A DNA stretch of 64,000 nt from Methanobacteriota archaeon (GTDB lineage: Archaea; Thermoplasmatota; Poseidoniia; Poseidoniales; Thalassarchaeaceae). The stretch spans positions 80,114-144,113 of the forward strand of contig WTHQ01000020.1 in the NCBI GenBank assembly GCA_011523055.1, given 5' to 3'. Below, in pieces: positions 166 through 56,146 of the stretch (positions are counted from its first letter, which is position 1; every line of letters begins with the position of its first letter). The translations under genes and the position numbers were made by a program. Under the pieces are notes generated by a model, which made no database searches, was not told the origin of the DNA, and saw only the letters and a list, made by a program, of their open reading frames with translations.

Positions 166-175
166 AGTTGGTTCG

Positions 176-577: not shown

Positions 578-582
578 TAGAA

Positions 583-1846: not shown

Positions 1847-1870
1847 GTGCTTTCTATCTATGCAGAGTTC

Positions 1871-7467: not shown

Positions 7468-7493
7468 GGTTGTTACAAAAGGCTGGAAGACTT

Positions 7494-8360
7494 ATGACTT
7501 CCCAATGGCTGCAGGAGAAAAAGTGCAAGAGCACCGACGCGGAGATGTTTTTTTTGGGATCAATGACTCTGAGGTGGGCGTTGCACCAATTGGATTTATG
7601 CAATACCGTAGCCATGGCCTCAATAATTGACTCGGATGGTAGCGTCCCTGCCAAAGTGGGGGCGAAATTGGCATTTTCCACCTCTGGAGACAGACATGGC
7701 ACAGTCGGAGGAGCCGGTCTGGAACTCAAAATCGAACACAGACTGAGATCGATACTCAATGGTTCCGAGGGGGGAATTGAGACCTTCGTCCTCTCCAAGT
7801 CATCTAGTGATCCTTCCACCACCAACCTAAACAGCCTCTGTGGTGGCCGGGTGACTGTGGCATTCGAGAGGTTGGATCCAAGCCCCCATATTCTACTGAT
7901 GGGTGGCGGCCACGTTGCAAAAGCCATCAGCGAGGCATGTGAACTCTTGGGATGGCGACATAGCGTCTTTGATGAACGTGGGGAATACGCGTCCTCAGAG
8001 TCATTCCCCGCCTCAGTAGAAAGAATCCATGCCAGCGCAGATGAGTTCCTTGAAATTGAGACTGCCACGTCACTCTCACGGTTTTCCGATATTCTCCTGC
8101 TCGGCCATGACTGGGCGATAGATCAGAAGCTGTTGATTGGGCTGCTGTCATATTCCGAGGATATTCCATGTAGGATAGGGTGCATAGGATCAAAGACCAA
8201 GTGGAGAGAATTCACAAAGTCAGCGAAAGGAGAGGGAGTTTCAGACGATCGTTTGGGTTTGGTCAGATGCCCAATCGGCGCCCCGATAGGAGCTGTGACC
8301 GTGGAGGAGATAGCATTCGCTGTCTGTGGCGAGATCATCTCGCTCATCAGGACCTCGTGA
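7494..8360 (+). CDS. XdhC/CoxI-family accessory protein (Mo-cofactor insertion/maturation for XDH-family enzymes)
   Basis: N-terminal XdhC_CoxI-like segment VAMASIIDSDGSVPAKVGAKLAFSTSGDRHGTVGGAGLE. Rossmann-like XdhC_C LLMGGGHVAKAISEACELLGWRHSVFDER. First ATG at 7494; the listed ORF start 7434 is TTG. Confidence 0.7.
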   Translation: MTSQWLQEKKCKSTDAEMFFLGSMTLRWALHQLDLCNTVAMASIIDSDGSVPAKVGAKLAFSTSGDRHGTVGGAGLELKIEHRLRSILNGSEGGIETFVLSKSSSDPSTTNLNSLCGGRVTVAFERLDPSPHILLMGGGHVAKAISEACELLGWRHSVFDERGEYASSESFPASVERIHASADEFLEIETATSLSRFSDILLLGHDWAIDQKLLIGLLSYSEDIPCRIGCIGSKTKWREFTKSAKGEGVSDDRLGLVRCPIGAPIGAVTVEEIAFAVCGEIISLIRTS

Positions 8361-8398
8361 CTAATCCGCTTCAAGCGCCACCTTCAATTTCATAACCA

Positions 8399-9067
8399 AT
8401 GGCAATGCAACAAACACTCGTGCGTAGGGTTAGGCTTAGGTGGAGTCGCTCAGACTTAGAAGGGGTAGCAGAGTTCAAACAGTTGATGGATGCTGTAAGA
8501 AAATACGAGGTGCTTGCCCACATGAAGCTGGGTGAAGAGGGTATCGAGCATCTCGCTGAGATAATCCCTGTGAAAGGTGAGTTGAGCGCAATGGATGACA
8601 TTCCAACTTTCGATGTGCTGGAAGTCCATGAGAAGGATGATGACTCTGGCTCATACCTAGTCTCTGTGAATCTTACACATTCCCTCCCGATGATGATGTT
8701 AGACCTGGAAAAAATACACTTACATCCGCCATATGGTTTAGACGAAGATGGACTCGAATTGAATTTTACTGGCCGATCAGACTCAATGAAGCGTCTCATT
8801 GAATTGCTGAGGATGATGATGCCCTGGGATTCGATCAGCATACAATCCGTCAGGAGCAATGTAGGCGACATGTGGCGAGGGATATTGACCGACCGACAAA
8901 TAGAAGTTCTTCGCCAGGCTGTAAATCTAGGGTACTACTCAGACGAGAGAGGGATCAAGATAAAAGATCTCGCAGAAAGTATGGGGATGGCAAGGTCCAC
9001 GATGGGGGGGCATCTCAAACTGATAGAACAATCTGTGATGTCAAAGGTGGTTGACGACTTAGGCTGA
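8399..9067 (+). CDS. Archaeal transcription regulator with C-terminal bat-type HTH_10 domain
   Basis: C-terminal LTDRQIEVLRQAVNLGYYSDERGIKIKDLAESMGMARSTMGGHLKLIEQ matches the bacterio-opsin activator HTH_10 pattern. Immediately upstream of the CoxSLM-like genes. Confidence 0.7.
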   Translation: MAMQQTLVRRVRLRWSRSDLEGVAEFKQLMDAVRKYEVLAHMKLGEEGIEHLAEIIPVKGELSAMDDIPTFDVLEVHEKDDDSGSYLVSVNLTHSLPMMMLDLEKIHLHPPYGLDEDGLELNFTGRSDSMKRLIELLRMMMPWDSISIQSVRSNVGDMWRGILTDRQIEVLRQAVNLGYYSDERGIKIKDLAESMGMARSTMGGHLKLIEQSVMSKVVDDLG

Positions 9068-9108
9068 CTAGCCCTAAGTCTCTTACACCTAGCAACAAGT
9101 CGAGGAAC

Positions 9109-9675
9109 ATGGCCCCGCAACCTCTGCCTTTGGCGGACGACGCCCCAGTGGCTGTTTGGAGTGCGGTAGTGAACGGTAATCCTGTCCGTGCGATCATAAA
9201 GAGTCATGATGTTCTGCTCGATGTAATCAGAGACGGAATCGGGTCACTAGGGACCAAGAGAGGGTGCGACATGGGAACCTGTGGCTGCTGCACTGTTATG
9301 ATTGATGGCAAACCAAGACTATCTTGTCTGACTCTTGCGATGGAGGCAAAAAACCACCAAATCACCACGGTGGAGGGTCTCTCCGACGGACATTATCTAC
9401 ATCCAATCCAAGATATGTTTGCCGAATGTGGTGGAAGTCAATGTGGATTTTGTACTCCGGGGTTTCTCGTTGCCAGTGCAGCGTTGTTGGATGGAAACCC
9501 AACACCAACAAGAGAGGAGGCCATGCAAGCCATAGAGGGTAACCTATGCAGATGCACGGGATACCAGCAAATTATCGATTCAATAATGAGCGCATCCAAG
9601 ATACTTTCTGAGGGGTCGCAGATTCAGGCCACCACCGAGCCAGCTAGCGATCCCCACCCGAATTCCAGGGGCTGA
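9109..9675 (+). CDS. [2Fe-2S] small subunit of xanthine dehydrogenase/aldehyde oxidase/CoxS family
   Basis: Plant-type ferredoxin motif CDMGTCGCCTV and second cluster motif CGFCTPGF...NLCRCTGYQQI. Confidence 0.85.
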   Translation: MAPQPLPLADDAPVAVWSAVVNGNPVRAIIKSHDVLLDVIRDGIGSLGTKRGCDMGTCGCCTVMIDGKPRLSCLTLAMEAKNHQITTVEGLSDGHYLHPIQDMFAECGGSQCGFCTPGFLVASAALLDGNPTPTREEAMQAIEGNLCRCTGYQQIIDSIMSASKILSEGSQIQATTEPASDPHPNSRG

Positions 9676-9679
9676 GCTA

Positions 9680-12454: not shown

Positions 12455-13455
12455 AGACCCCGGCATTTGAACTCCACATACCCACCACTTTGAAGGAGGC
12501 CCTGGGCATAGCCAGAGAATTGCATGAAAGGGGGCATGACTTTGACTGGATATCCGGGGGGACTGACCTAATTCCAAATTACAAGTGGGGAATCAACCCT
12601 CGACCTCATGTCATATCAATTTCAGGAGTTGATGAACTCAAGGGAATCTCCCCCACCAGGATTGGGGCGATGGCGAGATTGCAGGATATCGTGGAATCAC
12701 CGGTTGCGCACCCACTGATTGTTGAGGCGGCTGGGACGATTGCGAGTATAATGATCCGCAGGTCAGGGACACTTGGAGGGAACCTTTGCCTAGATACTAG
12801 GTGCTTCTGGCTCAACCAATCAGAGACATGGAGGAAGTCGATAGATTACTGTCACAAATGCGATGCGGGGACGGGTGCGGATTGCAGAGTGATCCCAAAC
12901 CAGAATGAGCTCTGTGTTGCGACCTACCAGGGAGATCTAGCACCTGCACTGATGTGCCTGGACGCAAGTGTTCACCTAGCCTCCCATAGGGGTACTCGGA
13001 GCATGCCGCTTGAGGACTTCTTCCAAGAAGACGGCATCACAAGAAACGTACTACAACAGGGAGAGATAGTCACACACGTCGAGATTCCAAAGGGTTCTAC
13101 GAGCGTAGTCGGGTCCTACCAGAAACTTCGTCATCGAGAGGCGTGGGATTTCCCAGAGGGGGGTGTCGCCTTCTCGGTATCACTCTCTGATGACGGCACC
13201 CCTGTTTCATTCAACATGGCTAGCACAGGGTTTGAGAGCATTCCTCGCAAGCATCACGATTTGGTTGAAACTATCTCAAAGGGTCCTGATTGGGCCGTGG
13301 AAGCAGAACGACTTGGGGTAGAACTCAAGAGAGCGGTCCGGCCCGTGCTAAACACGTGGTTCCCCCCAGCATATCGAAAGAAAATGGCCTCAGTGTTGGC
13401 CAGAAGAGCCATGGAAGAAGCCTCAAAAAGACTTACTTCGGCTTGGCAGTCATAG
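12451..13455 (+). CDS. FAD-binding medium subunit (CoxM/XdhB-like) of the XDH-family enzyme
   Basis: MKTPAFELHIPTTLKEALGIARELHERGHDFDWISGGTDLIPNYKW is a FAD-binding molybdopterin-dehydrogenase signature. Its ATG overlaps the CoxL stop in an ATGA arrangement (12451-12454). Confidence 0.8.
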   Translation: MKTPAFELHIPTTLKEALGIARELHERGHDFDWISGGTDLIPNYKWGINPRPHVISISGVDELKGISPTRIGAMARLQDIVESPVAHPLIVEAAGTIASIMIRRSGTLGGNLCLDTRCFWLNQSETWRKSIDYCHKCDAGTGADCRVIPNQNELCVATYQGDLAPALMCLDASVHLASHRGTRSMPLEDFFQEDGITRNVLQQGEIVTHVEIPKGSTSVVGSYQKLRHREAWDFPEGGVAFSVSLSDDGTPVSFNMASTGFESIPRKHHDLVETISKGPDWAVEAERLGVELKRAVRPVLNTWFPPAYRKKMASVLARRAMEEASKRLTSAWQS

Positions 13456-27374: not shown

Positions 27375-29456
27375 TCAATCTAATGAGACCCTTGAGAAAA
27401 ACAACATCGACTCTCTGAAGAGTTCTTCCCTCCTGAGCCTCTTGTTTCGCCTCAGATGGAAGAATGTGAACAAGAAAACTAATCCAATTAAAAATGGTAT
27501 CAAGACTTCTGCCTGATACCTTTCCATGAACTCAATTATTCCCCGCGCCGTATATGCCCAGGTTATCGAAGCAGCGGTTCCACCCACAGTACAGGCCAAG
27601 AGAACCCTCTCAAACTTCATCCTTGCAACAAGACCAAGCATGGCTCCGACCAGTACACCGCTGGCCATGAATGGTATCCAAACAAAGACGATCAGGCCCC
27701 AGAATCCATATTTGTCTATCCTGTTCCTGTTTCTCTGTGCGACATACTCAACGCTAGAGAGGATGTCTCCCCCCACAGTTTGCAATAGTGTTCCAGTGAT
27801 GCCATGTTGTTTTGCAACCAGTGCCTCTCCGGCGAAATCTGATCCTCCCTGTTCTACTCTACCGGCCACAGCTTGATCCGCGAGGGTTCTTTTGAGATTC
27901 CTAGCGCTGACGATCACCTTTCGGTCCCCCAGGAGGTTCGATAGCCCATCCCTCAAGCGATCAGAAAGGCTCTCCTCTATCTCTAGGAAATTTCGTGGGA
28001 ATAGGAAATATCCAAATCTCATTTTTGGTCGATAGATCATTCTGACATAGATCGCCTTTTCATCTGCAGAAACAAGTGTGCCTTCATCCTCTAGGTCATA
28101 TTGGTTAAGCAGTTCTTGGATGACTGGCCTGGCTAGGTCCTCAATTGTCCCGATGATGGAGATGGACTCAAAGAATGGTCTGTAGTCATCATCCACGACT
28201 GAGGGGTCAAATCCATGCATCGTCAAATCATTGTCGAGCATTATCGTTTCTTCAGACAGACTTGCAGTCATTGATTGCACCCTCAACTGGAGGGGCCTCA
28301 TTTCTCCGAAGATCGAGAACTCAGAAAGAAGGTTGCGCAATAGAGTCGACCTAACGTCGGTGACAGTCATGATGCTCCTGCTCTGGGGAGCGTATGGCAC
28401 GAATACATCAATTGAAATGGCTCTCTCTTGCATTCTCAATAGTTCGAAGTCGATCTTTACAGAGACTTCCTCCTGTGAGTTTTCAAGAACCCTAGTTATC
28501 AACCTCTTCACCTGTTCTTTGTTTAGGGCTTCTTCACCCTCTCGGTGGTACATCTTGTGCATCAATGGGTACTGTATGCAGAGGAAGACGATCGACATCC
28601 CCAGGGATACGAAGGCCATCCACCAGGCAGGGACACCCCCACTCCCTCCTGTCAGCATGGCTGTCTCTCTTCCACCTGCCCATTCAGCTGCCATCAGAAG
28701 CCACCCCCACTCGCCGAGATCCTTGAAAGTCAAGCAAGCACGAGGTCCCGTTTCTCTGAGGTCAATGTCTATTACCTCTTCATCAGAAAACAGTCCAGAA
28801 AACAATCCGCCCCCAGCACGGCGCTCCACCCCAACAGAGGACGATTGAGAGAAAATTTCGCTCGATCCGAGAGTGATATTACTATCGTCTACCGAGGGGT
28901 CTGAGCTTAGGTTGTGCAGTGAAACGGTCAAAGTCTGATCGCCGACAAAGAGATCTTCCCCCTCTATCTCGATCGCAAGGTTGCCTGTCCCACGTTGGAA
29001 GATTTCAGTGAGGTTCCCATCGATATTTGTGTATGATACTACCATAGCTGTATTTATTTCAGGAACGTTGTACGATTTCACTTTGAGATCGTGATGATCT
29101 TCGTATATCGAAAGCCAGATCTGTCCCTGTTTATCGATGCATTCGCCACCGTTATCCAATGGGGTCTTGGAGAGAGTTTGGTCGATGGTCACAGAGTCGC
29201 CCGAAAGTAAACCCGTGCTGGCGGTGGCAATCAGTAAGAGGAAGAAGCCACCAAATGCAACCCCGAAGAGGAGGACATAGTCCTCAACTGCCCATCTAAA
29301 GAACCTCGTGTCCCCCAGTCTTCTCTCCCTGATTGAGTCTAATTCTCGGTCCAACTTGGCGCGCTCTGCCTCAGAGAAGATGTGAGATATGTCCCCCGCG
29401 TCAACTTTACCATCCTTGTTTAGGTCGAGAGAGTGGTGCTCGCCCCGCGATGGCAT
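27375..29456 (-). CDS. Membrane protein with N-terminal EF-hand/dockerin-like Ca-binding loop, large extracytoplasmic domain and C-terminal multi-TM domain
   Basis: Real start at the ATG MPSRGEHHSLDLNKDGKVDAGD. The listed ORF runs on to 29627 only by reading through the tRNA-Leu gene. Loop DLNKDGKVDAGD is D-x-N-x-D-G-x-x-D. C-terminus has 4 TM helices. Confidence 0.55.
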   Translation of the reverse strand: MPSRGEHHSLDLNKDGKVDAGDISHIFSEAERAKLDRELDSIRERRLGDTRFFRWAVEDYVLLFGVAFGGFFLLLIATASTGLLSGDSVTIDQTLSKTPLDNGGECIDKQGQIWLSIYEDHHDLKVKSYNVPEINTAMVVSYTNIDGNLTEIFQRGTGNLAIEIEGEDLFVGDQTLTVSLHNLSSDPSVDDSNITLGSSEIFSQSSSVGVERRAGGGLFSGLFSDEEVIDIDLRETGPRACLTFKDLGEWGWLLMAAEWAGGRETAMLTGGSGGVPAWWMAFVSLGMSIVFLCIQYPLMHKMYHREGEEALNKEQVKRLITRVLENSQEEVSVKIDFELLRMQERAISIDVFVPYAPQSRSIMTVTDVRSTLLRNLLSEFSIFGEMRPLQLRVQSMTASLSEETIMLDNDLTMHGFDPSVVDDDYRPFFESISIIGTIEDLARPVIQELLNQYDLEDEGTLVSADEKAIYVRMIYRPKMRFGYFLFPRNFLEIEESLSDRLRDGLSNLLGDRKVIVSARNLKRTLADQAVAGRVEQGGSDFAGEALVAKQHGITGTLLQTVGGDILSSVEYVAQRNRNRIDKYGFWGLIVFVWIPFMASGVLVGAMLGLVARMKFERVLLACTVGGTAASITWAYTARGIIEFMERYQAEVLIPFLIGLVFLFTFFHLRRNKRLRREELFRESMLFFSRVSLD

Positions 29457-29523
29457 AGTTTTCGAATTGGCAGGTACTTCATCAAACCGTTGGCTTATTT
29501 TTTGGAAACCCCGTTGAAGATAT

Positions 29524-29608
29524 TGGTGCAGGGGACAGGATTCGAACCTGCGAAGCACTACGCACTGGGACCTAAACCCAGCCCCTTTGACCGCTCGGGA
29601 ACCCCTGC
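29524..29608 (-). tRNA. tRNA-Leu (anticodon UAG), type II with long variable arm, CCA encoded
   Basis: Reverse complement GCAGGGGUUCCCGAGCGGUCAAAGGGGCUGGGUUUAGGUCCCAG...GCAGGUUCGAAUCCUGUCCCCUGCACCA. Acceptor GCAGGGG/CCCCUGC, anticodon loop UUUAGGU, T-loop UUCGAAU. Confidence 0.8.
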
Positions 29609-29828
29609 TTGAGCCATGGGGCGTCACCGTCTATATTTTACAATGCCGAGGGGTGAAATCTAGCACTATCCATACTTTTGGAGATTCAAACCTTGTCCTT
29701 TGCACTACCAGAGCGATTATTTTCACAACTTGGCACTTACGTCCAGCAGCTTTTCCGCCCCTGTAGTTGGAAATCTCCCATCAAGGTCATAACGGATTCG
29801 TGCCGGCGGGAGGAAATAGGGTGGTCCG

Positions 29829-30833
29829 ATGGCGCGCATAGGAATTTTTGGCATGGGCAACTGGGGAACCGCATTGGCGAAGGTATGGAGTGATGATGGC
29901 CATACTGTCACGGGGTGGACAATCGAGAGTGAAGTCTATGAGTCGCTAATGATTGAATCAACCAATCACAAATATCTTCCTGGAGTGAAGATGCCGAATC
30001 TCCAGGCGACGATGGCACACAGAGATATTCTCGATAGTTCAGAGATTCTCGTTTTTGCATTGCCCAGTAGTGTGATTCTTGACGTCATAGACCTAGTTCT
30101 ACCGGATTTAAAACCATCACACGTCATTCTCGACCTTGCCAAGGGTCTTGCCCCGGAAGAAGCGAGTGAGGATGGAATGATCTCAACTGCCATTGAACAC
30201 AAATTGAGGTCACAGGGCAAATCGAATCCTGTCCTTGTTCTTACCGGCCCCACTATTGCCCCAGAGGTGGCCAGGGGAGTTGTAACGAGTGCATTGGTTG
30301 CATGTGACGACGATTCAGTTGCCAAGAAAATAGCCCAGAGATTATCCACAAAAACTCTGATTCTCAGTTCAGCTGACGATCCTGTCGGAGCAGAGCTGTG
30401 GGGTGCCTACAAGAACACAGTAGCCCTAGCATGCGGAATAGTTGATGGCCTCAGGGACTCCATAGGGGGGGACAACCTCAAGGCTGCTCTTGTTCAATCA
30501 GGTTTCAATGAGGGGAGAGCGCTCCTATCGAAGATGGGAGCGAGCACGGATACTGCATTCGGTCCAGCAGGGTTGGGGGACTTGTATGTAACATCTACAA
30601 GCCCACGCAGCAGAAACAGAACGCTCGGAGAAAAACTAGGGGAAGGGAAAAGCCTGCAAGACGCTCTAGATGAAATGACGATGGTTGCCGAGGGGGTTCG
30701 AGCAACGAGAATGTTTAATCAAACGGCGATGAGGAATGGCTGGAATACACCCTTCTTGAATTCCCTATGTGATCTACTCGATGGGAAGATAACACCGGAT
30801 GAATCAGTCAGAAAGATGGTCGAGTCATTTTAG
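29829..30833 (+). CDS. gpsA: NAD(P)H-dependent glycerol-3-phosphate dehydrogenase (bacterial-type GpsA)
   Basis: MARIGIFGMGNWGTALAKVW Rossmann N-terminus. GpsA C-terminal domain GLGDLYVTSTSPRSRNRTLGEKLGEGKSLQDALDEM. Confidence 0.85.
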   Translation: MARIGIFGMGNWGTALAKVWSDDGHTVTGWTIESEVYESLMIESTNHKYLPGVKMPNLQATMAHRDILDSSEILVFALPSSVILDVIDLVLPDLKPSHVILDLAKGLAPEEASEDGMISTAIEHKLRSQGKSNPVLVLTGPTIAPEVARGVVTSALVACDDDSVAKKIAQRLSTKTLILSSADDPVGAELWGAYKNTVALACGIVDGLRDSIGGDNLKAALVQSGFNEGRALLSKMGASTDTAFGPAGLGDLYVTSTSPRSRNRTLGEKLGEGKSLQDALDEMTMVAEGVRATRMFNQTAMRNGWNTPFLNSLCDLLDGKITPDESVRKMVESF

Positions 30834-30848: not shown

Positions 30849-31724
30849 TCACCCCCGCTTTGGGACGAGCACAGATTTCCACTTGGGCCTGTTTAATGGC
30901 CTCTCGTCTGTAAAAAACGATCGAATGAAAACAGAGATTGAATCAATAATTAGCACCATCAAGAATACCAGTATCAGATATGCGATTACCTTGTCATAGA
31001 CAAGGAATCCTAGATACAAATCAATGTAGTACCCAATTCCTCCCGCCCCGACGATCCCGATCACGGAACCATGCCTTACATTGTACTCGAACATGAATAT
31101 CGCTTGAGATATCAAGTCGTTAGCGGACTCTGGGATGACGATGTTGATGGCCTTCTCGATTGCCCCGAGGCCTGCAGCTTCCGCGGCTTCCAAGGGAAGG
31201 CTGCTCATCCCCTCTATTGCCTCATACTGTAGTTTTCCAAGATAGCCAACGGTGTAGACGGTCATTGCGAGGATGCCTGATATCGGTCCGAAGCCGATCA
31301 GGATAACAAAGAAGATAGCCCATATTAGCGCAGGGAGACTCCTCAAGGAAGCGAGTAAGATTCTGATTACGGAGGAAATTCCGGGTGTGCTAAGATTTCT
31401 CGCAGCCAGTAGAGAGAGGGGCAGGGATATTGTCATTCCAAAAACAGTGGATATGAACGCAATTTTCAACGTCTCTGACATACCGATCCAGGCTGTAGAG
31501 CAAGTGATTGAGAATCCGAGAGGTGCGTTGCATTCAGGGTAGAGTCTCGGTTCGAAGATACTCCAATCGGGAGGCCAAAGAGACTCAACAAAGAAGGTTT
31601 TCAAATTCGCGAACCCAGTTGATAGCCTTCCCCAGTCGTCAACTGCCCCCAGGGCCAAGTAGACAGAGGTAAAAAAACAGAAAACCGCGAACAAAGCGGG
31701 GTTGATTCGGATCTTTCTCGTCAC
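30849..31724 (-). CDS. ABC transporter permease, PhnE-like (phosphonate/phosphite-type importer)
   Basis: 6-TM permease with EAA-like loop LEAAEAAGLGAIEKAINIVIPES. Adjacent to a PhnC-like ATPase, with a 4-bp overlap. Confidence 0.65.
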   Translation of the reverse strand: MTRKIRINPALFAVFCFFTSVYLALGAVDDWGRLSTGFANLKTFFVESLWPPDWSIFEPRLYPECNAPLGFSITCSTAWIGMSETLKIAFISTVFGMTISLPLSLLAARNLSTPGISSVIRILLASLRSLPALIWAIFFVILIGFGPISGILAMTVYTVGYLGKLQYEAIEGMSSLPLEAAEAAGLGAIEKAINIVIPESANDLISQAIFMFEYNVRHGSVIGIVGAGGIGYYIDLYLGFLVYDKVIAYLILVFLMVLIIDSISVFIRSFFTDERPLNRPKWKSVLVPKRG

Positions 31725-32440
31725 ATCCTTACCTCCATAGTCTTCGTTTCAGACAAGAATGGGTTCAATCGTCCATCATCCATCACGACTAGCCTATCCG
31801 CGATCCTTCTTGCTCGGCCGATGTCGTGTTCAATTAGGACAATCGCTGCTGCTTCCTCGCGAGAATATTCTACAACAGCTTGTATAACATTCAACATGGT
31901 TTCCTCGTCTAACTCGCTAAGAAACTCATCAGCGAGGATTAAATTCGGCCTCTGAGCCAATGTCCTAGCCGTGGCGACTCTTCTTTGTTGGCCCCCTGAT
32001 AAACGTCTAATCGGTTCCCATGTCTTGTCCTCAAGTCCCATCTGGATGATTGACCTTTTTGCCCACTCTTTTGCTTCTTTTGAGGCAAAGAGGTCGATTG
32101 GGCCACAGAACCTCGCACGGGATCCGATCAATACGTTGTGGAACACGCTTGCATGTCGAATGAGCCCTAATCGCTGTGGAATGTAACCAAGTTGACCTCT
32201 GTATGGTTTTGAGGGGGCCCTTGCGCCGCAAACCTCAATTTTTCCGGCTAATGGTGGAACTAAGCCAGCAATTGTCTTCAGTAGTGTTGACTTGCCAATC
32301 CCAGATGGCCCGGCAATCGCTAAGATTTCCCCATTCTTTATTCGCAGGGATGGTATTTTGGCAAGGGGGGCCTTTTTGTCATATCCTATCGTTACACCCT
32401 CAAGGCTGACCGCTATGTCGCCAGTCACCTTTGTTGACAT
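31721..32440 (-). CDS. ABC transporter ATP-binding protein, PhnC-like
   Basis: Walker A GPSGIGKST, signature LSGGQQRRVATARTL, Walker B LILADEFLSELD. Confidence 0.75.
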   Translation of the reverse strand: MSTKVTGDIAVSLEGVTIGYDKKAPLAKIPSLRIKNGEILAIAGPSGIGKSTLLKTIAGLVPPLAGKIEVCGARAPSKPYRGQLGYIPQRLGLIRHASVFHNVLIGSRARFCGPIDLFASKEAKEWAKRSIIQMGLEDKTWEPIRRLSGGQQRRVATARTLAQRPNLILADEFLSELDEETMLNVIQAVVEYSREEAAAIVLIEHDIGRARRIADRLVVMDDGRLNPFLSETKTMEVRM

Positions 32441-32580
32441 TAATTTAGGCCAACCTAATCCTCTATTTGGACCTAGTGGGAGGTGCTTGATATTGGGTTT
32501 GGGAAAACGATATCAAACCTGTACGAATTTCCAATGTTGCAGACATAGAATGAAGTGTTGGGGCAATCCGTACTGCAGCC

Positions 32581-36263: not shown

Positions 36264-39200
36264 TCACTTCTTGTTCAAGTTGGCATAATAGTCCTTGGCA
36301 TATTGCCTTGCGTAGTCCTCTGGGTATCCTTGGCCGACCATTTGTTGGACGTAAGCTTCCACAGGATCCAGATCTTGGACCCCTTGGAATGACTGAATTT
36401 CGTCGCTGATCGCGCTCTTTCCTCTGCCCCTCATTGCTATGGTGACTCCTGCAATTGCTAGTATTAGCAGAAGGCCGCCCACGATTGGAATCACGAGGCC
36501 GATGCCCTGTCCCTCCGAGTCACAGCCGGCTGCGGATGGGTCCCTCACACATGGGTCGTTGCTCCTCTTGAGCAAGTAAATGTCCTCACTCGTTGTGGTC
36601 GTGTATCTCAGCCCATCCCCCTCGATAACACGTATGTACACCGTGGATAGGACCCCTTCGCTCTCTGAGTACAGGTCCGAGATGTCCAGGGTGATCGAGA
36701 ACGTTGATCCATCGCCTAATAGGCCAGTTTCGTTGTACTTGCCGATTTGCTTCTGTGTAGCCTTGGGCGTTGGGGATAGGTCCAGTATCAAGGCGTCCGC
36801 AAGCGCAACTTGTATTCTGACGTCTGAGTTCTCAGCCCCTGACACCACAGACCCGCTGATGGTGACTCGATCCTCTGTCTGTGAGTCATTCGGCTTCGGG
36901 GAGCTGAAGGTCACGACTGGTGGTTCGTCACCGAAATCCTCGCCTACCACAACGAAGTACATCCTCGCCTTGGGGGATGACTTCCCTGCCTTGTCGTAGA
37001 CAATCAGTTCCAGCCTGATCTGGTTCTCAAGGGTGCCGTCGCTCGTGATGTTCCTGAAGGTGTAGCTGAATGCGTCTCCGCCGGCAGTTGCGGGAATATC
37101 GAAGACATGGCCATCGAGGCTTGGTTGGGACGTGACTGGATAGTCGAAGTAGACTCTCCAGGAGTACATCTGAATGCCACTCTCTCCCTCGGGCGCATCG
37201 GCATCGCTGCTCTCTGCTCCTGAGAAAGACAGGGTTATGTCCCCAGTTGGGGTTTGTCGGACCCTGTAAACATCCCATTCTGTTCCTGCGACTGTCTTTG
37301 TACCGTCCTCTGACACGAACTCGTCAGTCAGGGAGTCCTCAACGAGGTCGATTGATGCTGTGGGGTCTGATTCATCAGCGAGTGTGTCATTGGTGATGAG
37401 TCGGACGTATGTCATCCTGGTGTGGCCCTCAGCGTCATGGAGATAGAGGGTCAACAGCCACTCGGCGCCGATAAAGCAGCCTGTGGAGGACAATGTGCTC
37501 TCGACGCAGAAGGACCCCAGGGTGGGTATCTCCGCTGAGGTCTGTGAGACGTGAGAGAACTCACCGGGATCGACTATCTCGTTGTTCCAACCGGTTACAG
37601 AGCCCTCCCCACCAGGTTCGAGTGTCCAGTCTGCGATGAGATCCGAAACGTCCGAGACATAACTGAACTGCAGTTCCGAGTTGGATTTGATGTAGACGGT
37701 GTTGTACGCCTTCGTTACAGTGTTGATCGAGGGGGAGATTCCGTTGATCGTGAGGTCGAACGTGTCGCCCGCAATTCCAAAGTCCATGGGGTATGGCGTG
37801 ACCGAGTACCCGAGCATGTTCGATAGAAGTGGCATTGTCTGCCCCCCATACGGCTCGGAGAAGCTTGGGTTCTCAACGTCCATCGTTGTGACAATCATGC
37901 CCCCGTTGCCTCTATTGCATAGGCTCAGGAGGGACTGTGAACCATATTCGACGCTTCCAAGGAGGCTGTGGAATGTGCCTAGCGGATCTGATATCCTGCC
38001 CCCGCATGCAGATGGGATCTGGTTGGGAAGGACCTGTGAGATGTCCAAGCCCGACATAGCAACATATTGTCCGCCATGCACGCCCTGCAGCGCAGTCAGG
38101 TCGACGCCCCCTAGGAGGGGGTGGTATCGGTCGATTACCCGCACGTCGTCATAGTCGAACCTTATCGAGGAGTTCGCGGGGTTTCTCTCCTGTATGTCCA
38201 TTCCGAACGGTAGGTTGTCGGGGACGTAGTCGTTCCTGTAAGGGCCAAGATGGACTTGGAGCGTGCCCCCGTTTACCATGAAGTCGTCAAGGACGTCTAT
38301 CACAGAGAGGCCGCTGGCTCGAACCTCGCTGAGCTTCTGGTAGTAGTCGCCGTAGGCAGCGTTGTAGTCGGTCTGCCATGGGAGCAGTACCTTCTGGTAG
38401 ACTCCTGTCCAATCCTCGGTGACGTAGGACTCCCATTCACTGGTTCTGAACTGGGTGTAAGTCATCCCCATTGCCTCTAGGTCGGATTTTACCCTCTGCA
38501 GCCGGTTCTGGTCGGTTGGGTTTGAGAGTATGGCTACGTCAATCTCGTCCATGAACGTGATTTCGAAGTATCTCTTGTTTCCGTTCTCTGAGCCGTCTGA
38601 TACCAACTGGGCCCCCCAACTCAGGTTGTAGGCCCTTCCGGGTTCCCAGGAATTGAACATTCCAGTGGACCCCACAAGGGCATTGCTACCGAGTGTCCAG
38701 TTTGCGAAGGATCTCTGGTGCGGGACCAGGTCGAAGGGTCCGTTGTCTGCTGTTGCCTGCCAGACCATCTGTCCCGTGGTCGTGTCGACGATTGACATGG
38801 TTACTTCATACACGCCTTCGATGACTCCGTTGAGGATAGGCAGTGAGAATGTGTGTGCCGTGGTGGAGCTGATTGGGTAGACGCACTCGTAGGTCACATC
38901 TCCGACGCAGTCCAGAACGTTTGGCTGCAGCAATGTGATTTCTGCGCTATCGATGCTGAACTGGACCTTTGAGAAGTTATTGCTGGGGTTGACTTCCTCT
39001 GCGAGGTACCATTTCTGGGCTGGGTCGTTGTTATCGAAGATAGTCCGCACATCGATCCTGTACAGCCCGGAGTCGAAGTTGTGGTTCCCTAGGCTCACGA
39101 TCTGACTTTGCTGGGAGTCCAGGCCGGTCACATCTGCGCTGTAGCTGCCATCGTCCTCGAATGTGAATTCCTCGAATCGAATGTTGTCTATGGCAAAGCC

Positions 39201-42200
39201 AGCCAGGCCCGCGTTGCCGTTTACACCATCCCCGTTGGATATGAATCTCCAAGTCAGGGTTACATCGGAGCCCCTCAGTGACGTGCATTCGTCCCTCCAG
39301 AACGCTGGCTCGTCGGATGTCCTGTTCTCCAAGATTATGTGAGTGAGGTCCAAGACCACTGACTTGACGATCTGTTCAGAGTCGAACCATGTGTAGTACC
39401 CTCGGTCTCCAAAGTCGCCAAAGTACTCAGCTTCATCGTAGTTTCCATCGTTGTCGAAGTCTTCGCATGCATGGAATTGGGGGTCCTCGGGGTTGGTCCT
39501 TTGGATGCCATTCTCATTGAGGTCTACCCATGAGCCTTGCACCAGGCCGTTGTATGACTGTCCGTTCTTCGTCCACTCTATGAACAGAGCCGCTTGGTCT
39601 CTAATTGCCTGGATATTCCCAAACTGGTCCACTAGGTAGTCGCCCTCGGCGTAGTAGTCCCAGGACACGTAGGTATAGTCGGAGTCGGTCTGACCGACTC
39701 CGACAGGCCCGACTGACATCGGTTCATTCCAATTGTCTCCATAACCGACATCCGGGTCTCCGAGCCAGTATGCGTAGTTCTTGAAGACCCCTTGGTTTTG
39801 TGGGAGAACCTGGTTTGAGGTGGTCGAATCGTCCAGCCTGCTTCCATTTTCGTTCCCGTCATCTGACCATATCGGGTTGACTCCCGAGAAGTCCTCGATG
39901 GCAGTTAGGTCGGGAAGTGCATTGAATATCTCTGCCTCCGTAGTCCAATTGGTGATGGTGTTGCCGAAGTTCTGTACCCTGATGTCTATCGGGTATTCCG
40001 CCGATGCATAACGAACCCCGGGCTCGAAGTCGATGAATGGATCAGCCGCCAGCCCTGGATCATAGAGGTTCTTGACGGTGGTCTGGAACTTCAAAGCGTC
40101 GTTTATTGGGTCCTGGTCGGTGAAGCCATTGAAGTTGGTCAGAGCGGCGCTGATGTAGTACGTGGTGTCGTCCAAAAAGTCCGCCGAGAGTGTGATCTCC
40201 CTCTCCTCTCCGGCCGCGAGTGGTTGGAAGCTCACCTGCTGGGTGACTGATTGCTCCAATCCGAAGACGGTGTTCCTTTTTCGGATTGTGATGTTGTCGA
40301 ACGCGAATCCGTCTAGGCCCGTGTCGTAGGAGGTGTCCGTTGTCCCGACTGACCCGTAGAGGCCGCTTCTGAATCGGAACCTTAGGTCAATTACCTCTCC
40401 GGCATATGGCGTGAGGTCAATGGACTCTTCAGTGTTCAGGTTCTCATCATCGGTGCCACCCTCTGAGTAGTTGGTCCAATCGGTTATGTATTGGGGGTAA
40501 ATGGCGAAGTTTTTGATTTCCAGCTCGGGGTCTTGGTTCAGTTGTAGGAGGTTGAAGTATCGATCGAGGTCATACCCCCCCTGGAACCAAACGCTTTCCC
40601 ATCCACGGCCCTCTGAGAATGCCTCGATTCCACAGGAGTCCTCGTAGAGCCACCTCTCTTGTACGACGTAGGGTTCCGCTAGGAAGAGGTTCGTGAAGGC
40701 AACGCTGCAAAGTATGGAGACGTCGAGGAACGCAGCGTCGGCTCCAGTGAGGTCAACACCCTGCAGTATGAACGCCTCGTCCATGTTGTTAAAGTACCCT
40801 GAGTTGTTCTCTGCAGTACCGTTGTAGTCGAGCCCTGCCCACATGTAGGTCGTTGGGTTGTGGTCGGCCTCATAGGTCGAGACGTTTTCCGAGGCGGCGG
40901 TGGAATTGGTTTCGGCATGCCAGGATGTCCCTGGAGCGAAGTCAGAGGTGTATGACGCCCCCACCCAATTGCACGCAGAGCAATTCGTGTTGTCGATGTT
41001 GCCATCGAAGTCGTTCGAGTAGACTACCGTGTCGACTCCGCCAGCGACCTCTTTCACCGAGAGGTCGAGGTCTACTGAACCACTGACTGGGTTCAACCCT
41101 GTGTTCATCAGTGTGACATTGACAAATCGTGTCCCCTCGCCGAGTTGGGCGTTTCCAGTCGCAGGATCTGTGGAGGCAGGGGCGATGGTCAAGCCATCGA
41201 TCGCGACGTCCTGATTGTCGAGGGTCAGGACAGATAGGAAATCCCCTGCCCCTGGCCAACCTAGGCTATCCATCCACATGGCGCCACTCCCGAACCGGTA
41301 GGAGTAGTCCCTCTGTCCGATTATGATCTCCTGAGCGGTTGTGTCGTCCCCCTTGAGTTGCGCTGGTTCAGCGACGGTTGGCCTTCTTCCGACATCGAAT
41401 GATATCGGAGATAGGTACCCTGTGCCCTGCCCGTTAGACAGAATGATCTCGACGCTGTTCAATTCTCTCAGATTCTCGACTGTCGTGTATGTCTGGTTCC
41501 TGGAGGATGAGTCCTGTAGTCTCGTTAGCGTCAGCTCCGTGGGTATGAAGAAATCCATGTTGCCATCTCCGTTGACATCGGAGATTGTGATGGAGGCGCC
41601 CTTGTAATTGCCAAGGGCGATATAATTCCTGGTGTCCCAGTTTGAACCCACTGAAGATCGGGTTGCGTAGCTGATTCTGCCTTCGATCCCATCAACTGCT
41701 GCGACCATGTCAACGATGCCATCGTCATCCGTATCCTCCACATCGATCTGCAGTTCGTACCCATGCTCGGCATCTAGGGTGAAGTCGTGGACGGCGGCAG
41801 CGGCGGATCCCCCGACGTTCGGATCAGCATACAGTCCTGTGACGCAATCGAACTCGAGCACTGTCATGTTATCGTAGTTGCCAACGGAGTAGCCGGCACC
41901 TGGATTGAACCTCGGGGTTCTCAGGACCCAGAGATCGAGATCCTCGCACTCACCGGGCAGGGTCTGTCCAGTGAATGGGTCCTGTGCCAAATCCTCGCCC
42001 CACTGGCCTAGTTCTATGTAGCTGTAGTGGCCATAGGTCGGGGCGGGAACCAGGATGGTCTGGTCTGCCTGAGGCCCGGGATCTGGCCCCTTGAAGACCT
42101 CGAGATAGGTCTGGCCGCCATCCGGGGTCATGGTTGCTAGAACGATATCGTCATCCCCATCGTCATCGATGTCGCCGATATCCATCCCTTGGCTGAACGG

Positions 42201-42683
42201 ATGAGAAGGTATCTCGATGATATCGCGGTCCCATTGGTGTGTATTCTTGTTGCACTCCCCCCACATAACCGTTAGGTTGGCGGGCCTGACGAAGGTCTCT
42301 CCAACGAATCTGACGTTCTCTTGGAAGTATACGATGTCTGGCATTTGGTCCCCGTCTATGTCTGCAATCTGGATTTGTTGGCTGTTGGCGGTTTGGAAGA
42401 TGTTTTGACGTTGTGAGTCGCCTACTCCGCCTGCGATGAATATGTCCTGCCTGTCAGGGAAGCCTCCTTGACCGTCATTGAACATTGAAGTGAGGTAGAA
42501 GCCCATGCTGCTGGACGCAACGATGTCATTGTCCCCGTCGCAGTCCAGGTCCCCTGTGTCGACATAGTGTGGGTCCCGCTGGACAGCATACTGCGTGATC
42601 TGTGAGGCACTGGCAGCTGGCACAAGGCTCAGCATGGTCATAGACACCATCATGGTCACAAGGGTGATTGCCTTGAACCTCAT
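36264..42683 (-). CDS. Giant (about 2140 aa) surface adhesin-like protein with FG-GAP/VCBS repeats, signal peptide and C-terminal TM anchor
   Basis: Signal MRFKAITLVTMMVSMTMLSLVPAASAS. Ca-binding FG-GAP-like repeats DLDCDGDNDIV, DIDGDQMPDIV, DIGDIDDDGDDDIV, DVNGDGNMDFF. C-terminal TM GLVIPIVGGLLLILAIAGVTIAM plus cytoplasmic tail. The ORF opens at 42809 but the signal peptide dictates start 42683. Confidence 0.8.
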   Translation of the reverse strand: MRFKAITLVTMMVSMTMLSLVPAASASQITQYAVQRDPHYVDTGDLDCDGDNDIVASSSMGFYLTSMFNDGQGGFPDRQDIFIAGGVGDSQRQNIFQTANSQQIQIADIDGDQMPDIVYFQENVRFVGETFVRPANLTVMWGECNKNTHQWDRDIIEIPSHPFSQGMDIGDIDDDGDDDIVLATMTPDGGQTYLEVFKGPDPGPQADQTILVPAPTYGHYSYIELGQWGEDLAQDPFTGQTLPGECEDLDLWVLRTPRFNPGAGYSVGNYDNMTVLEFDCVTGLYADPNVGGSAAAAVHDFTLDAEHGYELQIDVEDTDDDGIVDMVAAVDGIEGRISYATRSSVGSNWDTRNYIALGNYKGASITISDVNGDGNMDFFIPTELTLTRLQDSSSRNQTYTTVENLRELNSVEIILSNGQGTGYLSPISFDVGRRPTVAEPAQLKGDDTTAQEIIIGQRDYSYRFGSGAMWMDSLGWPGAGDFLSVLTLDNQDVAIDGLTIAPASTDPATGNAQLGEGTRFVNVTLMNTGLNPVSGSVDLDLSVKEVAGGVDTVVYSNDFDGNIDNTNCSACNWVGASYTSDFAPGTSWHAETNSTAASENVSTYEADHNPTTYMWAGLDYNGTAENNSGYFNNMDEAFILQGVDLTGADAAFLDVSILCSVAFTNLFLAEPYVVQERWLYEDSCGIEAFSEGRGWESVWFQGGYDLDRYFNLLQLNQDPELEIKNFAIYPQYITDWTNYSEGGTDDENLNTEESIDLTPYAGEVIDLRFRFRSGLYGSVGTTDTSYDTGLDGFAFDNITIRKRNTVFGLEQSVTQQVSFQPLAAGEEREITLSADFLDDTTYYISAALTNFNGFTDQDPINDALKFQTTVKNLYDPGLAADPFIDFEPGVRYASAEYPIDIRVQNFGNTITNWTTEAEIFNALPDLTAIEDFSGVNPIWSDDGNENGSRLDDSTTSNQVLPQNQGVFKNYAYWLGDPDVGYGDNWNEPMSVGPVGVGQTDSDYTYVSWDYYAEGDYLVDQFGNIQAIRDQAALFIEWTKNGQSYNGLVQGSWVDLNENGIQRTNPEDPQFHACEDFDNDGNYDEAEYFGDFGDRGYYTWFDSEQIVKSVVLDLTHIILENRTSDEPAFWRDECTSLRGSDVTLTWRFISNGDGVNGNAGLAGFAIDNIRFEEFTFEDDGSYSADVTGLDSQQSQIVSLGNHNFDSGLYRIDVRTIFDNNDPAQKWYLAEEVNPSNNFSKVQFSIDSAEITLLQPNVLDCVGDVTYECVYPISSTTAHTFSLPILNGVIEGVYEVTMSIVDTTTGQMVWQATADNGPFDLVPHQRSFANWTLGSNALVGSTGMFNSWEPGRAYNLSWGAQLVSDGSENGNKRYFEITFMDEIDVAILSNPTDQNRLQRVKSDLEAMGMTYTQFRTSEWESYVTEDWTGVYQKVLLPWQTDYNAAYGDYYQKLSEVRASGLSVIDVLDDFMVNGGTLQVHLGPYRNDYVPDNLPFGMDIQERNPANSSIRFDYDDVRVIDRYHPLLGGVDLTALQGVHGGQYVAMSGLDISQVLPNQIPSACGGRISDPLGTFHSLLGSVEYGSQSLLSLCNRGNGGMIVTTMDVENPSFSEPYGGQTMPLLSNMLGYSVTPYPMDFGIAGDTFDLTINGISPSINTVTKAYNTVYIKSNSELQFSYVSDVSDLIADWTLEPGGEGSVTGWNNEIVDPGEFSHVSQTSAEIPTLGSFCVESTLSSTGCFIGAEWLLTLYLHDAEGHTRMTYVRLITNDTLADESDPTASIDLVEDSLTDEFVSEDGTKTVAGTEWDVYRVRQTPTGDITLSFSGAESSDADAPEGESGIQMYSWRVYFDYPVTSQPSLDGHVFDIPATAGGDAFSYTFRNITSDGTLENQIRLELIVYDKAGKSSPKARMYFVVVGEDFGDEPPVVTFSSPKPNDSQTEDRVTISGSVVSGAENSDVRIQVALADALILDLSPTPKATQKQIGKYNETGLLGDGSTFSITLDISDLYSESEGVLSTVYIRVIEGDGLRYTTTTSEDIYLLKRSNDPCVRDPSAAGCDSEGQGIGLVIPIVGGLLLILAIAGVTIAMRGRGKSAISDEIQSFQGVQDLDPVEAYVQQMVGQGYPEDYARQYAKDYYANLNKK

Positions 42684-42784
42684 ATCTCTATTTCTCCTAG
42701 CCTGGGCTGCGCTGCGCATGGCTTGGGGGAGTAGCAATGGTCTCTTATTATTTGCCGCCGGATGGACGTTGAAACGGCCTGACG

Positions 42785-43387
42785 TCAGTCCCTGTAGACC
42801 TGTATCCAAGACGGTGAAGGTGCGTACTCGTCACCAGTATCTGTTAGGATTCTGTCCACCTTCCCTGAAGCCCATAGGCGCTTCAATGCTAGGCTAATCG
42901 CGATTTCGTCGAGCGTTGTTCTCTCAGAAAGCAAGTCAGCCAGACTCTGAGGTGACGTGGACGAGAGACCGTGCTCTGTCACAAGAATGGCCATCACAAG
43001 CCTGAGCCACTCCTCCGTGAGTGGGTCCATCGATATCGAGTCAGGGGGGATCTGTGGCTCTGGCATCTCAGAAATGAAGGTCCTGAGTTCATCCTTATCA
43101 AGGTCCGGGGGGGCCTTGGAATCGAGTTCATCAGTAGGGTCAAACGACCCTATTTCCCTGATCACCGATGGAATTTTCGAGGGATCCGGTGTTGGCCCAG
43201 GGAGAGTATATTGCTCCCCATTTCGCCCCTTTGGAGCTGATGTTCTACTCCCTGATAGTTCCATGAGCCAACCAGATTCAACGTCTAGGCCTATCTGGCC
43301 CGCGAAGTGTTTCACCCAGGCCTCAGGCCCTTCCACTACCGCTGTTATCTCGTAGCTGTCATTCCTAAAGACGAGTCTGGATTTCAA
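42785..43387 (-). CDS. Hypothetical protein, possible winged-helix C-terminal domain
   Basis: 200-aa ORF between aconitase and the giant adhesin. C-terminal SPQSLADLLSERTTLDEIAISLALKRLWASGKVDRIL is wHTH-like. Acidic/Pro-rich linker. Confidence 0.4.
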   Translation of the reverse strand: MKSRLVFRNDSYEITAVVEGPEAWVKHFAGQIGLDVESGWLMELSGSRTSAPKGRNGEQYTLPGPTPDPSKIPSVIREIGSFDPTDELDSKAPPDLDKDELRTFISEMPEPQIPPDSISMDPLTEEWLRLVMAILVTEHGLSSTSPQSLADLLSERTTLDEIAISLALKRLWASGKVDRILTDTGDEYAPSPSWIQVYRD

Positions 43388-56079: not shown

Positions 56080-56146
56080 AACCCCCCTTCATCGAAGCAT
56101 CCAGAAGTTGAGATTATACGGTGGCTGCTTCGAAGATCACACAGGC

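Follow-up and report, generated by a model that had tools for sequence, protein, structure and literature searches.

The window, a 64-kb stretch of DNA from a Marine Group II (MGII; order Poseidoniales) archaeon, carries an intact gene for bacterial-type glycerol-3-phosphate dehydrogenase (gpsA). We consider it probable that this gene encodes a functional sn-glycerol-3-phosphate (sn-G3P) dehydrogenase and is a vertically inherited MGII core gene, which would have been gained once by inter-domain exchange and is likely to feed membrane glycerolipids. The occurrence of gpsA in MGII has been published order-wide since 2016–2018, and the window is one more instance of this oddity. Added here are an order-wide tRNA-Leu–gpsA–phnEC synteny and a gammaproteobacterial sister clade of the archaeal enzyme.

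The gpsA open reading frame (positions 29829..30833, + strand) opens with an ATG (MARIGIFGMGNWGTALA) and encodes 334 amino acids, annotated from the reading frame, NCBIfam and Pfam as a predicted NAD(P)H-dependent sn-G3P dehydrogenase. Over residues 1–331 the product passes the NCBIfam GpsA subfamily model NF000942 (275 bits, cut-off 257) as well as NF000940 (223.7 bits, cut-off 202). It has a two-domain architecture consisting of an N-terminal Rossmann NAD(P)-binding domain (NAD_Gly3P_dh_N, PF01210, residues 4–164, 1e-35) and a C-terminal helical substrate domain (NAD_Gly3P_dh_C, PF07479, residues 184–327, 1e-39; GPD_NAD_C_bact, PF20618, residues 247–312, 7e-17), and a Pfam search of the reading frame gave no match to an Fe-ADH-type domain. 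Among solved structures, GpsA of the bacterium Coxiella (3K96, 142 bits) matches best. All cofactor and substrate motifs are intact, including the KG-motif lysine, the Lys-Asn pair, the Asp and Thr of GDLxxT and the Arg-Asn of SRNR. In an alignment of MGII, bacterial and Petalomonas homologues, the motif G8-x-G10-x-W12-G13-T14-A15-L16-A17 is invariant, as are K105, K195, N196, D251, T255, R262 and N263, which match the same motifs in 3K96, 1Z82 and 1EVY. Judging from the human GPD1 and Leishmania GPDH structures, we take these seven residues to be the contacts to dihydroxyacetone phosphate (DHAP) or G3P and to nicotinamide.

These results bear out the preliminary description, which had called the gene a bacterial-type GpsA in an otherwise archaeal gene set; the window also encodes DHQS-II, a GHMP-type shikimate kinase, a DeoC-type aldolase and an HTH_10 regulator, all of archaeal kind. 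The proposed MGII lineage was likewise correct, as the best 80 genomic loci for GpsA all belong to MGII/Poseidoniales/Thalassarchaeaceae MAGs or SAGs (90 to 65% identity). Marine metagenomes contain thousands of further homologues. In the window, which represents part of the genome, no domains of egsA, GGGPS, PlsC or PlsY products were found in open reading frames of at least 150 amino acids or at the window ends.

An earlier account of gpsA in MGII, by Villanueva et al. in 2017 (Environ Microbiol 19:54), reportedly includes a Gps tree. A survey of 270 Poseidoniales MAGs found egsA in none, and places gpsA in all genera but Q1 according to its main text and in all genera according to its supplement; the sister group MGIII lacks gpsA and mostly retains egsA (PMC6461757). 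The same MGII pattern of gpsA present and egsA absent appears in PMC7852524 and PMC6962369, and the gene described here fits it, as had been proposed. With gpsA already reported from every MGII genus or almost every one and egsA absent, the basic finding is thus a known one. Relative to the published MGII gpsA (K00057; Rinke et al. 2019, PMC6461757) we see no substantive difference: it is the same gene in the same order, with orthologues 65–99% identical in the same neighbourhood. The literature also records other archaeal lipid genes and PlsC/PlsY homologues in the order.

GpsA (EC 1.1.1.94) would reduce DHAP with NAD(P)H to sn-G3P, an activity and stereochemistry predicted from its family and motifs. 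The G1P dehydrogenase EgsA, of the Fe-ADH/DHQS-like superfamily, performs the analogous reaction of DHAP and NAD(P)H to glycerophosphate, but has an unrelated fold and the opposite stereochemistry. Because the order is without G1P dehydrogenase in published surveys, GpsA would be the sole recognised glycerophosphate route in MGII cells. Its G3P would most likely go to membrane glycerolipids, as backbone and/or headgroup. Two publications weigh against such a role: field lipidomics of MGII-dominated waters detected no intact polar lipids of known archaeal types and none of the hypothetical mixed lipids (PMC6962369), and Coleman et al. doubted a part in membrane synthesis for the bacterial-type lipid genes that occur patchily among archaea (PMC6431249).

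A functional GpsA whose G3P is not the membrane backbone, the backbone coming instead from an unrecognised G1P source, is an unlikely alternative but one with several points in its favour. G3P could be the polar-headgroup donor in archaetidylglycerol phosphate synthesis, and archaeal Ags is thought to take G3P in this way (PMC9385802, PMC6431249). The enzyme could also act in redox balance, or flux could run mainly in reverse, with G3P salvaged from the breakdown of bacterial or eukaryotic phospholipids entering glycolysis; genes for fatty-acid degradation are present in MGII (PMC6461757). In E. coli and Cloacimonetes, G1P appears to come from a source yet to be recognised (PMC6431249), GpsA homologues occur in some archaea with normal G1P lipids, such as Archaeoglobus (1TXG), and MGII-rich waters yielded no mixed G3P–isoprenoid lipids (PMC6962369). 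However, on the MGII stem the acquisition of gpsA goes together with the disappearance of egsA, and MGIII shows the opposite pattern, which looks like replacement and not addition. Moreover, glpK, glpD and ugp are absent from the conserved neighbourhood, and conservation of gpsA is very strong across the order.

The reading of gpsA as a gene gained once by the order draws on its phylogeny, for which all trees were built by neighbour joining with 50 bootstraps. Against 135 other GpsA representatives, the MGII sequences form a clade in 50/50 replicates. In a tree with 60 outgroups, MGII and gammaproteobacterial GpsA form a joint clade, again in 50/50 replicates, and support for MGII monophyly falls to 28/50 once this close bacterial sister group is added; the archaeal and bacterial groups are approximately reciprocally monophyletic with moderate MGII support. 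MGII and gammaproteobacterial sequences share 49–65% identity but no more than about 40% with other GpsA, and a search of 1.84 billion representatives gave a step from at least 51% directly to at most 39%. The joint subfamily sits on a long stem. Its nearest outgroups are mostly metagenomic singletons, and the nearest representative outside it that bears an organism name is from Anaerotignum (Firmicutes; 37% identity). Several seemingly intermediate representatives of 50% clusters proved to be frameshifted or adaptor-contaminated fragments, and one sequence (P0125) was rebuilt from two frames of locus L081 before use.

Members of the sister clade (P0288–P0413; loci L081, L084 and L085) come from uncultured marine Gammaproteobacteria/Pseudomonadales on contigs of up to 5.4 Mb that carry TonB-receptor, RND-efflux and fused-NuoCD contexts. 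Their GpsA is 49–55% identical to the MGII enzyme, has an NCBIfam score profile near-identical to that of MGII GpsA (about 275 for NF000942) and likewise passes none of the lineage-specific equivalog cut-offs. The bacterial gene differs in residing in a Gram-negative host with a 2–5 Mb genome, in having no tRNA-Leu neighbour and in its context, which comprises genes for glucokinase, YccA/Bax1-I, ABM, radical SAM and SSF proteins, or nuo. Full support for the joint clade points to one ancient inter-domain exchange. This transfer would have occurred at or before the origin of Poseidoniales, with a partner related to the gammaproteobacterial clade that holds the only close homologues, and its direction may have been into the archaea. 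We regard as evenly balanced the more specific proposal that the MGII and gammaproteobacterial enzymes form an exclusive divergent subfamily and that a single exchange between co-occurring marine plankton marks the order's swap from G1P to G3P dehydrogenase.

Canonical bacterial GpsA (Coxiella burnetii 3K96 and Thermotoga maritima 1Z82; NF000939/NF000941) shares with the MGII enzyme two domains, the GxGxWGTALA, KN, GDL..T and SRNR motifs and a length of about 330 amino acids, but MGII GpsA reaches at most 37–39% identity outside the sister clade, fails the equivalog cut-offs and has small insertions. For the window protein, none of the lineage-specific equivalogs (NF000939, NF000941, NF011211 and others) was passed, the best being NF000941 at 233 against a cut-off of 423, and this places it in a divergent subfamily. 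The Archaeoglobus fulgidus enzyme (1TXG) has the same family and fold and an archaeal host with normal G1P lipids, but is a weaker match to the window GpsA than bacterial enzymes are (98.7 versus 142 bits) and lies outside the MGII/gammaproteobacterial subfamily; MGII GpsA is therefore not among the widespread archaeal paralogues.

Such divergence could mean that the subfamily has changed function, using another substrate or making G1P from a GpsA fold, and the latter, if true, would explain how an archaeal lipid pathway that is otherwise complete can lack egsA. The long stem, the low identity to other GpsA and the failed cut-offs are in keeping with this idea, as are subfamily-specific insertions seen in the alignment near residues 107–131 and 209–213. 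The gammaproteobacterial copy is also unlike canonical class-level GpsA (165 bits to the Coxiella enzyme) and might thus represent an additional copy that serves a different role. Nevertheless, all DHAP/G3P- and nicotinamide-contact residues are invariant and we know of no GpsA-fold enzyme that produces G1P, making a change of function very unlikely. The fold fixes the face of the nicotinamide from which hydride is lost, and with it the stereochemistry (PMC12718374). Should the bacterial copy indeed be a second, non-canonical gpsA, the role of the subfamily may be specialised and common to both hosts, and transfer from archaeon to bacterium would be possible too.

Within MGII, gpsA is an old conserved core gene. 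A tRNA-Leu gene (anticodon TAG; 29524..29608, − strand; ARAGORN, and 51.6 bits to Rfam RF00005) lies 220 bp upstream in divergent orientation, and a PhnCE-like importer locus begins 15 bp past the gpsA stop. The preliminary description had noted both neighbours but saw in them a hint of horizontal acquisition, which comparison across the order does not support: these surroundings are ancestral. Of the 41 MGII loci scanned, 37 have tRNA-Leu(TAG) immediately upstream of gpsA, as does a deeper-branching relative among the archaea (L082/L083) whose GpsA is 61% identical; phnE–phnC lies downstream in most MGII loci, and the full tRNA-Leu(TAG)–gpsA–phnE–phnC order is kept across MGII genomes down to about 61–65% GpsA identity. 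Composition is ordinary, with a GC content of 0.495 (z −0.75; window mean 0.511), a GC3 of 0.487 (z −1.27; 0.46–0.48 in the archaeal shikimate genes) and a codon-usage fit at the low end of the window (z −1.30, rank 3 of 42). Of the two features that the preliminary description had named as counting against it, ordinary codon usage was found, but a deep archaeal phylogeny was not, since the clade is MGII-specific and has a bacterial sister.

Selection on gpsA is strongly purifying. Even comparisons with the nearest genomes (90% amino-acid identity) show saturation at synonymous sites (pS about 0.8), which rules out a numerical dN/dS, and genes were therefore compared by relative dN. In every comparison gpsA has the lowest dN among seven neighbouring genes, for example 0.073 against L001–L003, where its neighbours range from 0.08 to 0.22. 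The gene is probably inherited vertically as part of the MGII core.

Recent acquisition of gpsA on a small island at tRNA-Leu, in the source genome or its close relatives, is highly improbable. The adjoining tRNA gene, the low codon-fit rank and the GC3 value would suit such an event, but the tRNA–gpsA–phnEC order recurs in dozens of MGII genomes, GC, GC3 and codon fit deviate from the window mean by no more than 1.3 SD and resemble those of the archaeal shikimate genes, and the nearest bacterial homologues are just about 50% identical. A search for an att-like repeat of the tRNA end returned none, the single 15-nt repeat being a chance match unrelated to the tRNA, and Pfam detected no integrase or transposase domain in the gpsA flanks. 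With gpsA at the same site order-wide, we reject a tRNA-anchored genomic island: the tRNA gene is a conserved neighbour and not an integration site, and recent import is not supported. An assembly or binning artefact that put a bacterial gene or contig into an archaeal bin has nothing but the bacterial affinity of the family to recommend it and is scarcely credible, given archaeal genes on both sides within a contiguous 64 kb and the same junctions in independent assemblies, single-cell genomes (AG-422 SAGs) and contigs of up to 1.6 Mb.

Two short elements lie between the tRNA and gpsA. An A/T-rich element (29631..29648, reading CTATATTTTACAATGCCG on the + strand and assigned to the − strand), located 23–40 bp upstream of the tRNA 5′ end and kept in the window, L001, L004 and L005, is by its position a probable archaeal TATA-type tRNA promoter. 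The element CAAGGTCATAAC (29782..29793, + strand) lies 36–47 bp upstream of the gpsA ATG; its GT(C/G)(A/T)TAA core shows little or no variation across eight MGII loci spanning 64–90% GpsA identity, where the remaining spacer is unalignable, and it is possibly a promoter element. A scan of the gpsA region for sigma-70 promoters and terminators gave matches at chance level only.

Downstream, a PhnE-like ABC permease gene (30849..31724, − strand; Pfam BPD_transp_1; TIGR01097 211.8 bits, slightly below the 216.7 cut-off) is convergent with gpsA and does not form an operon with it. A PhnC-like ABC ATPase gene (31721..32440, − strand; Pfam ABC_tran; TIGR02315 134.8 bits, far below the 266 cut-off) is co-directional with phnE and overlaps it by 4 nt. 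In relatives, genes for a transferrin-like binding protein and an Fea1-like protein precede phnC; at the phnEC locus of the window these two genes are missing and no binding-protein gene was found. The top solved-structure matches of the relatives' binding protein are lactoferrin/transferrin (1e-20), with neither GpxB (9LF9) nor PhnD chains among the best 60 matches listed. GpxBCD is a glycerol-phosphate ABC importer of the PhnT family (PMC12718374), and a similar function for phnEC, which would explain G1P scavenging, was considered and rejected on the convergent orientation, the lack of a binding-protein gene and the transferrin/lactoferrin-like partner in relatives. Pairing with transferrin-like binding proteins makes a connection to glycerol phosphate improbable, and the transporter is probably unrelated to it; the transferrin/lactoferrin-like and Fea1-like partners in relatives suggest iron uptake.

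MGII are one of the most abundant groups of archaea in the plankton. The window establishes no new principle but supplies a clean, full-length and well-conserved GpsA representative, and the analysis reduces the evolutionary problem to a single ancient exchange whose gammaproteobacterial partner clade can be defined. Few natural cases challenge the ‘lipid divide’; the replacement of G1P dehydrogenase by a bacterial-type G3P dehydrogenase throughout an order is one of them, and it bears on models of membrane transition in eukaryogenesis and on archaeal lipid proxies (TEX86).

The gene at positions 29829–30833 (forward strand) starts with ATG and encodes a 334-aa protein that scores 275 bits against NCBIfam model NF000942 (NAD(P)H-dependent glycerol-3-phosphate dehydrogenase subfamily; curated cut-off 257) and 223.7 bits, end to end, against NF000940 (cut-off 202). 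Pfam matches comprise an N-terminal NAD-binding domain, a C-terminal substrate domain and a 'bacterial GPD C-terminal' module, and the top match among solved structures is bacterial Coxiella GpsA (3K96, 142 bits), followed by Thermotoga 1Z82, Leishmania GPDH 1EVY and Archaeoglobus 1TXG (98.7 bits). These results bear out the preliminary description of a bacterial-type gpsA, and we assign the enzyme with high confidence. In an alignment with homologues from Marine Group II (MGII), bacteria and Petalomonas, the GxGxWGTALA nucleotide-binding motif is invariant, as are K105, K195-N196, D251, T255 and S261-R262-N263-R264, and the invariant residues align with substrate and catalytic motifs of solved enzymes; we assign their individual roles by reference to the GPD1 and Leishmania GPDH structures. 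Synonymous sites are saturated between the window and the related loci L001–L010 (pS about 0.8), and in every one of these comparisons gpsA has the lowest dN of seven neighbourhood genes (0.073 against L001, versus 0.08–0.22 for the others). In more distant genomes GpsA keeps 65–70% identity, whereas most neighbours drop to 35–65%. From the invariant motifs and this strong constraint we infer that GpsA is very probably active and makes sn-glycerol-3-phosphate (G3P).

In the mechanism we favour, GpsA would reduce DHAP to sn-G3P, would be the only recognised source of glycerophosphate for the cell's membrane lipids and would have replaced the archaeal dehydrogenase G1PDH on the MGII stem. We consider this scheme likely, and lean modestly towards G3P serving as the membrane-lipid backbone. 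The main rival, in which the backbone is made some other way and G3P goes into headgroup synthesis or redox balance, or is scavenged and catabolised, seems unlikely to us; for headgroup synthesis, archaeal Ags is thought to use G3P (PMC9385802). Altered stereochemistry or substrate choice might be imagined in so divergent a subfamily, but the invariant active site makes this highly improbable.

The host is archaeal. The window encodes an archaeal shikimate route (DHQS-II, GHMP-type shikimate kinase and DeoC-type aldolase), an HTH_10 regulator, 2-oxoacid:ferredoxin oxidoreductase subunits, aconitase and SufBD. When one genome per species was scanned, the best 80 of 204 GpsA relatives, spanning 90% down to 65% amino-acid identity, all came from Marine Group II, Poseidoniales or Thalassarchaeaceae metagenome-assembled genomes (MAGs) or single-cell genomes, confirming the MGII lineage proposed earlier; GpsA also has a 99% identical counterpart deposited under the name 'Euryarchaeota archaeon'. 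Elsewhere in the window, a molybdopterin enzyme cluster of xanthine-dehydrogenase or CO-dehydrogenase type (7434–13455 and 5695–6291, both forward) comprises 2Fe-2S, large MoCo and FAD subunits, XdhC and MobA-like accessory genes and an HTH_10 regulator. A 1566-aa subtilase (56063–60763, forward; Peptidase_S8), which also contains a CARDB domain and has a zinc-ribbon at its C terminus, is in keeping with reports that MGII live by degrading proteins. The strongest codon-usage outlier is a 2181-aa ORF (36264–42809, reverse; GC3 0.676, fit z +8.1, a value that the size of the ORF itself inflates). Its sole Pfam match is an FG-GAP repeat, and it probably encodes a giant surface protein. Positions 1–3000 have a GC content of 0.43–0.44, markedly below the ~0.51–0.55 elsewhere, and a ThiF/MoeB-rhodanese gene at 544–1665 has GC 0.447 and poor codon fit (z −2.95).

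The neighbours of gpsA named in the preliminary description are real: a tRNA-Leu(TAG) gene lies 220 bp upstream on the reverse strand (29524–29608), and genes for a PhnE-like permease and a PhnC-like ATPase, convergent with gpsA, start 15 bp past its stop codon. The suggestion that this context may reflect horizontal acquisition does not survive comparison. A tblastn search of eleven window proteins against the 80 best loci showed that the order gpsA, convergent phnE–phnC and divergent 682-aa ORF recurs in most sufficiently long loci, and that the block upstream of gpsA recurs in closer relatives. In 37 of the 41 loci scanned, a tRNA-Leu(TAG) gene on the opposite strand precedes gpsA by 100–300 bp. 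The same tRNA gene is found ahead of gpsA in L082 and L083, which carry the deeper-branching archaeal homologue P0379 (61% identical). Composition is unremarkable: relative to window genes, gpsA has GC 0.495 (mean 0.511; z −0.75), GC3 0.487 (z −1.27) and codon-fit z −1.30, values resembling those of the archaeal shikimate genes. A search for an att-like repeat of the tRNA-Leu end found none, and the Pfam domains of the gpsA flanks include neither an integrase nor a transposase. Recent acquisition on an island is thus effectively refuted. An assembly artefact is effectively refuted as well. Within the tRNA–gpsA spacer there are two short conserved elements, one at either side; from their position they look like native promoter elements. 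Many MGIIb genomes (including loci L014, L020, L023, L024, L035, L042 and L043) have a second, tandem tRNA-Leu(CAG) about 150 bp beyond the TAG copy; the window and L001–L010 have the TAG copy only. A mechanically listed 750-aa ORF (27375–29627, reverse) runs through the tRNA gene, so its true start must lie downstream of it; its only domain match (Sm_multidrug_ex) is C-terminal, and its protein adjoins gpsA in relatives too (44–80% identity).

Because recent work established that GpxBCD, an ABC system of the PhnT family, takes up G1P as well as G3P (PMC12718374), we tested the conserved phnEC neighbour as a glycerol-phosphate importer. This candidate was rejected: gpsA and phnE are convergent, neither the window nor its closest relatives L001–L010 have a binding-protein gene at the locus, and the binding protein of other relatives is transferrin-like. 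Of the 80 MGII loci, 49 contain a homologue of one or more of the three genes that precede phnC in L016 (12990–15161 and 16005–16943, reverse; absent from window positions 32441–32580). The first of the three encodes the binding protein, which has 350 aa or a bilobed 700 aa and matches both Pfam Phosphonate-bd and Transferrin, with vertebrate lactoferrins and transferrins as best solved-structure relatives (E about 1e-20), and a Fea1-like 'low-iron-inducible' protein often follows it. Systems with this protein are more likely iron-uptake ABC systems, and a functional link between phnEC and gpsA is not supported. The sub-lineage of the window and L001–L010 has lost the binding-protein and Fea1-like genes at this locus. 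A bilobed transferrin-like protein is unusual in archaea.

A complete HMMER search of 1.84 billion cluster representatives revealed an identity cliff, with MGII-type sequences at 51% or more and all others at 39% or less, and the MGII-like set is monophyletic on a long stem in 50/50 neighbour-joining bootstraps. Two odd representatives are ~50% identical to the window protein; one, P0125, carries a frameshift and sits among bacterial-looking neighbours on a contig of 61% GC. Searching with the repaired P0125 sequence recovered a large family (58–99% identity). The few members with an organism name belong to MAGs labelled 'Gammaproteobacteria bacterium' or 'Pseudomonadales bacterium'; some of these derive from Tara samples, and their contigs reach 5.4 Mb. 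The gene contexts are clearly those of Gram-negative bacteria: a 4.77-Mb contig carries GltB, RND efflux and a TonB-dependent receptor, and a nuo operon with fused NuoCD also occurs. Among the bacterial loci L081, L084 and L085, the first and last share glucokinase, gpsA, YccA/Bax1-I, ABM, radical SAM and SSF genes. The bacterial group is 49–55% identical to window GpsA and up to 65% to the deepest archaeal members; each group is at most ~40% identical to any other GpsA sampled. The neighbour-joining tree unites the two as a clade in 50/50 bootstraps, with the archaeal group (including P0379 with its tRNA-Leu synteny) sister to the bacterial one, and a Petalomonas transcriptome sequence branches just outside. 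This sequence (P0122; EukProt EP01013, from the phagotrophic euglenid Petalomonas cantuscygni) is a full-length GpsA of the same subfamily, 47% identical to the window protein with a 29-aa Ala-rich insertion; contamination from prey or a symbiont could explain it, as could true acquisition by the eukaryote. The bacterial members fall below all canonical GpsA equivalog cut-offs, with a score profile nearly that of the MGII proteins, and their match to Coxiella GpsA is just modestly stronger (165 versus 142 bits).

By sequence, the identity gap, joint clade and failed equivalog cut-offs place MGII GpsA in a subfamily that it has in common with certain marine Gammaproteobacteria alone and that stands apart from canonical bacterial GpsA and from the scattered Archaeoglobus-type archaeal homologues. 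The preliminary interpretation is right in substance, except where it takes the local context as a hint of transfer. An ancient origin with vertical inheritance in MGII is very likely. Bacterium-to-archaeon transfer on the MGII stem would be more parsimonious because the sister group MGIII lacks gpsA and the family is otherwise overwhelmingly bacterial.

Villanueva et al. (2017), as cited in PMC7852524 and PMC6962369, described MGII as lacking G1PDH, able to make G3P and carrying bacterial-like ester-lipid genes. Rinke et al. (PMC6461757) found egsA, the G1PDH gene, in 0 of 270 Poseidoniales MAGs and gpsA in all genera but Q1 (main text) or in all genera (supplement); among MGIII MAGs, seven have no gpsA and most retain egsA. 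The core finding is therefore already published and the window is one more instance of it. In waters dominated by MGII, Besseling et al. (PMC6962369) detected no known archaeal intact polar lipids and none of the predicted chimeric lipids. Coleman et al. (PMC6431249) obtained poor resolution in the deep part of the GpsA tree and queried whether bacterial-type genes serve archaeal membranes. MGII are still listed with both gene sets in a 2026 review, which mentions no biochemical resolution. The gammaproteobacterial sister clade may be new or may have been reported previously. The remaining interest lies in this clade and in the biochemistry of MGII membranes.
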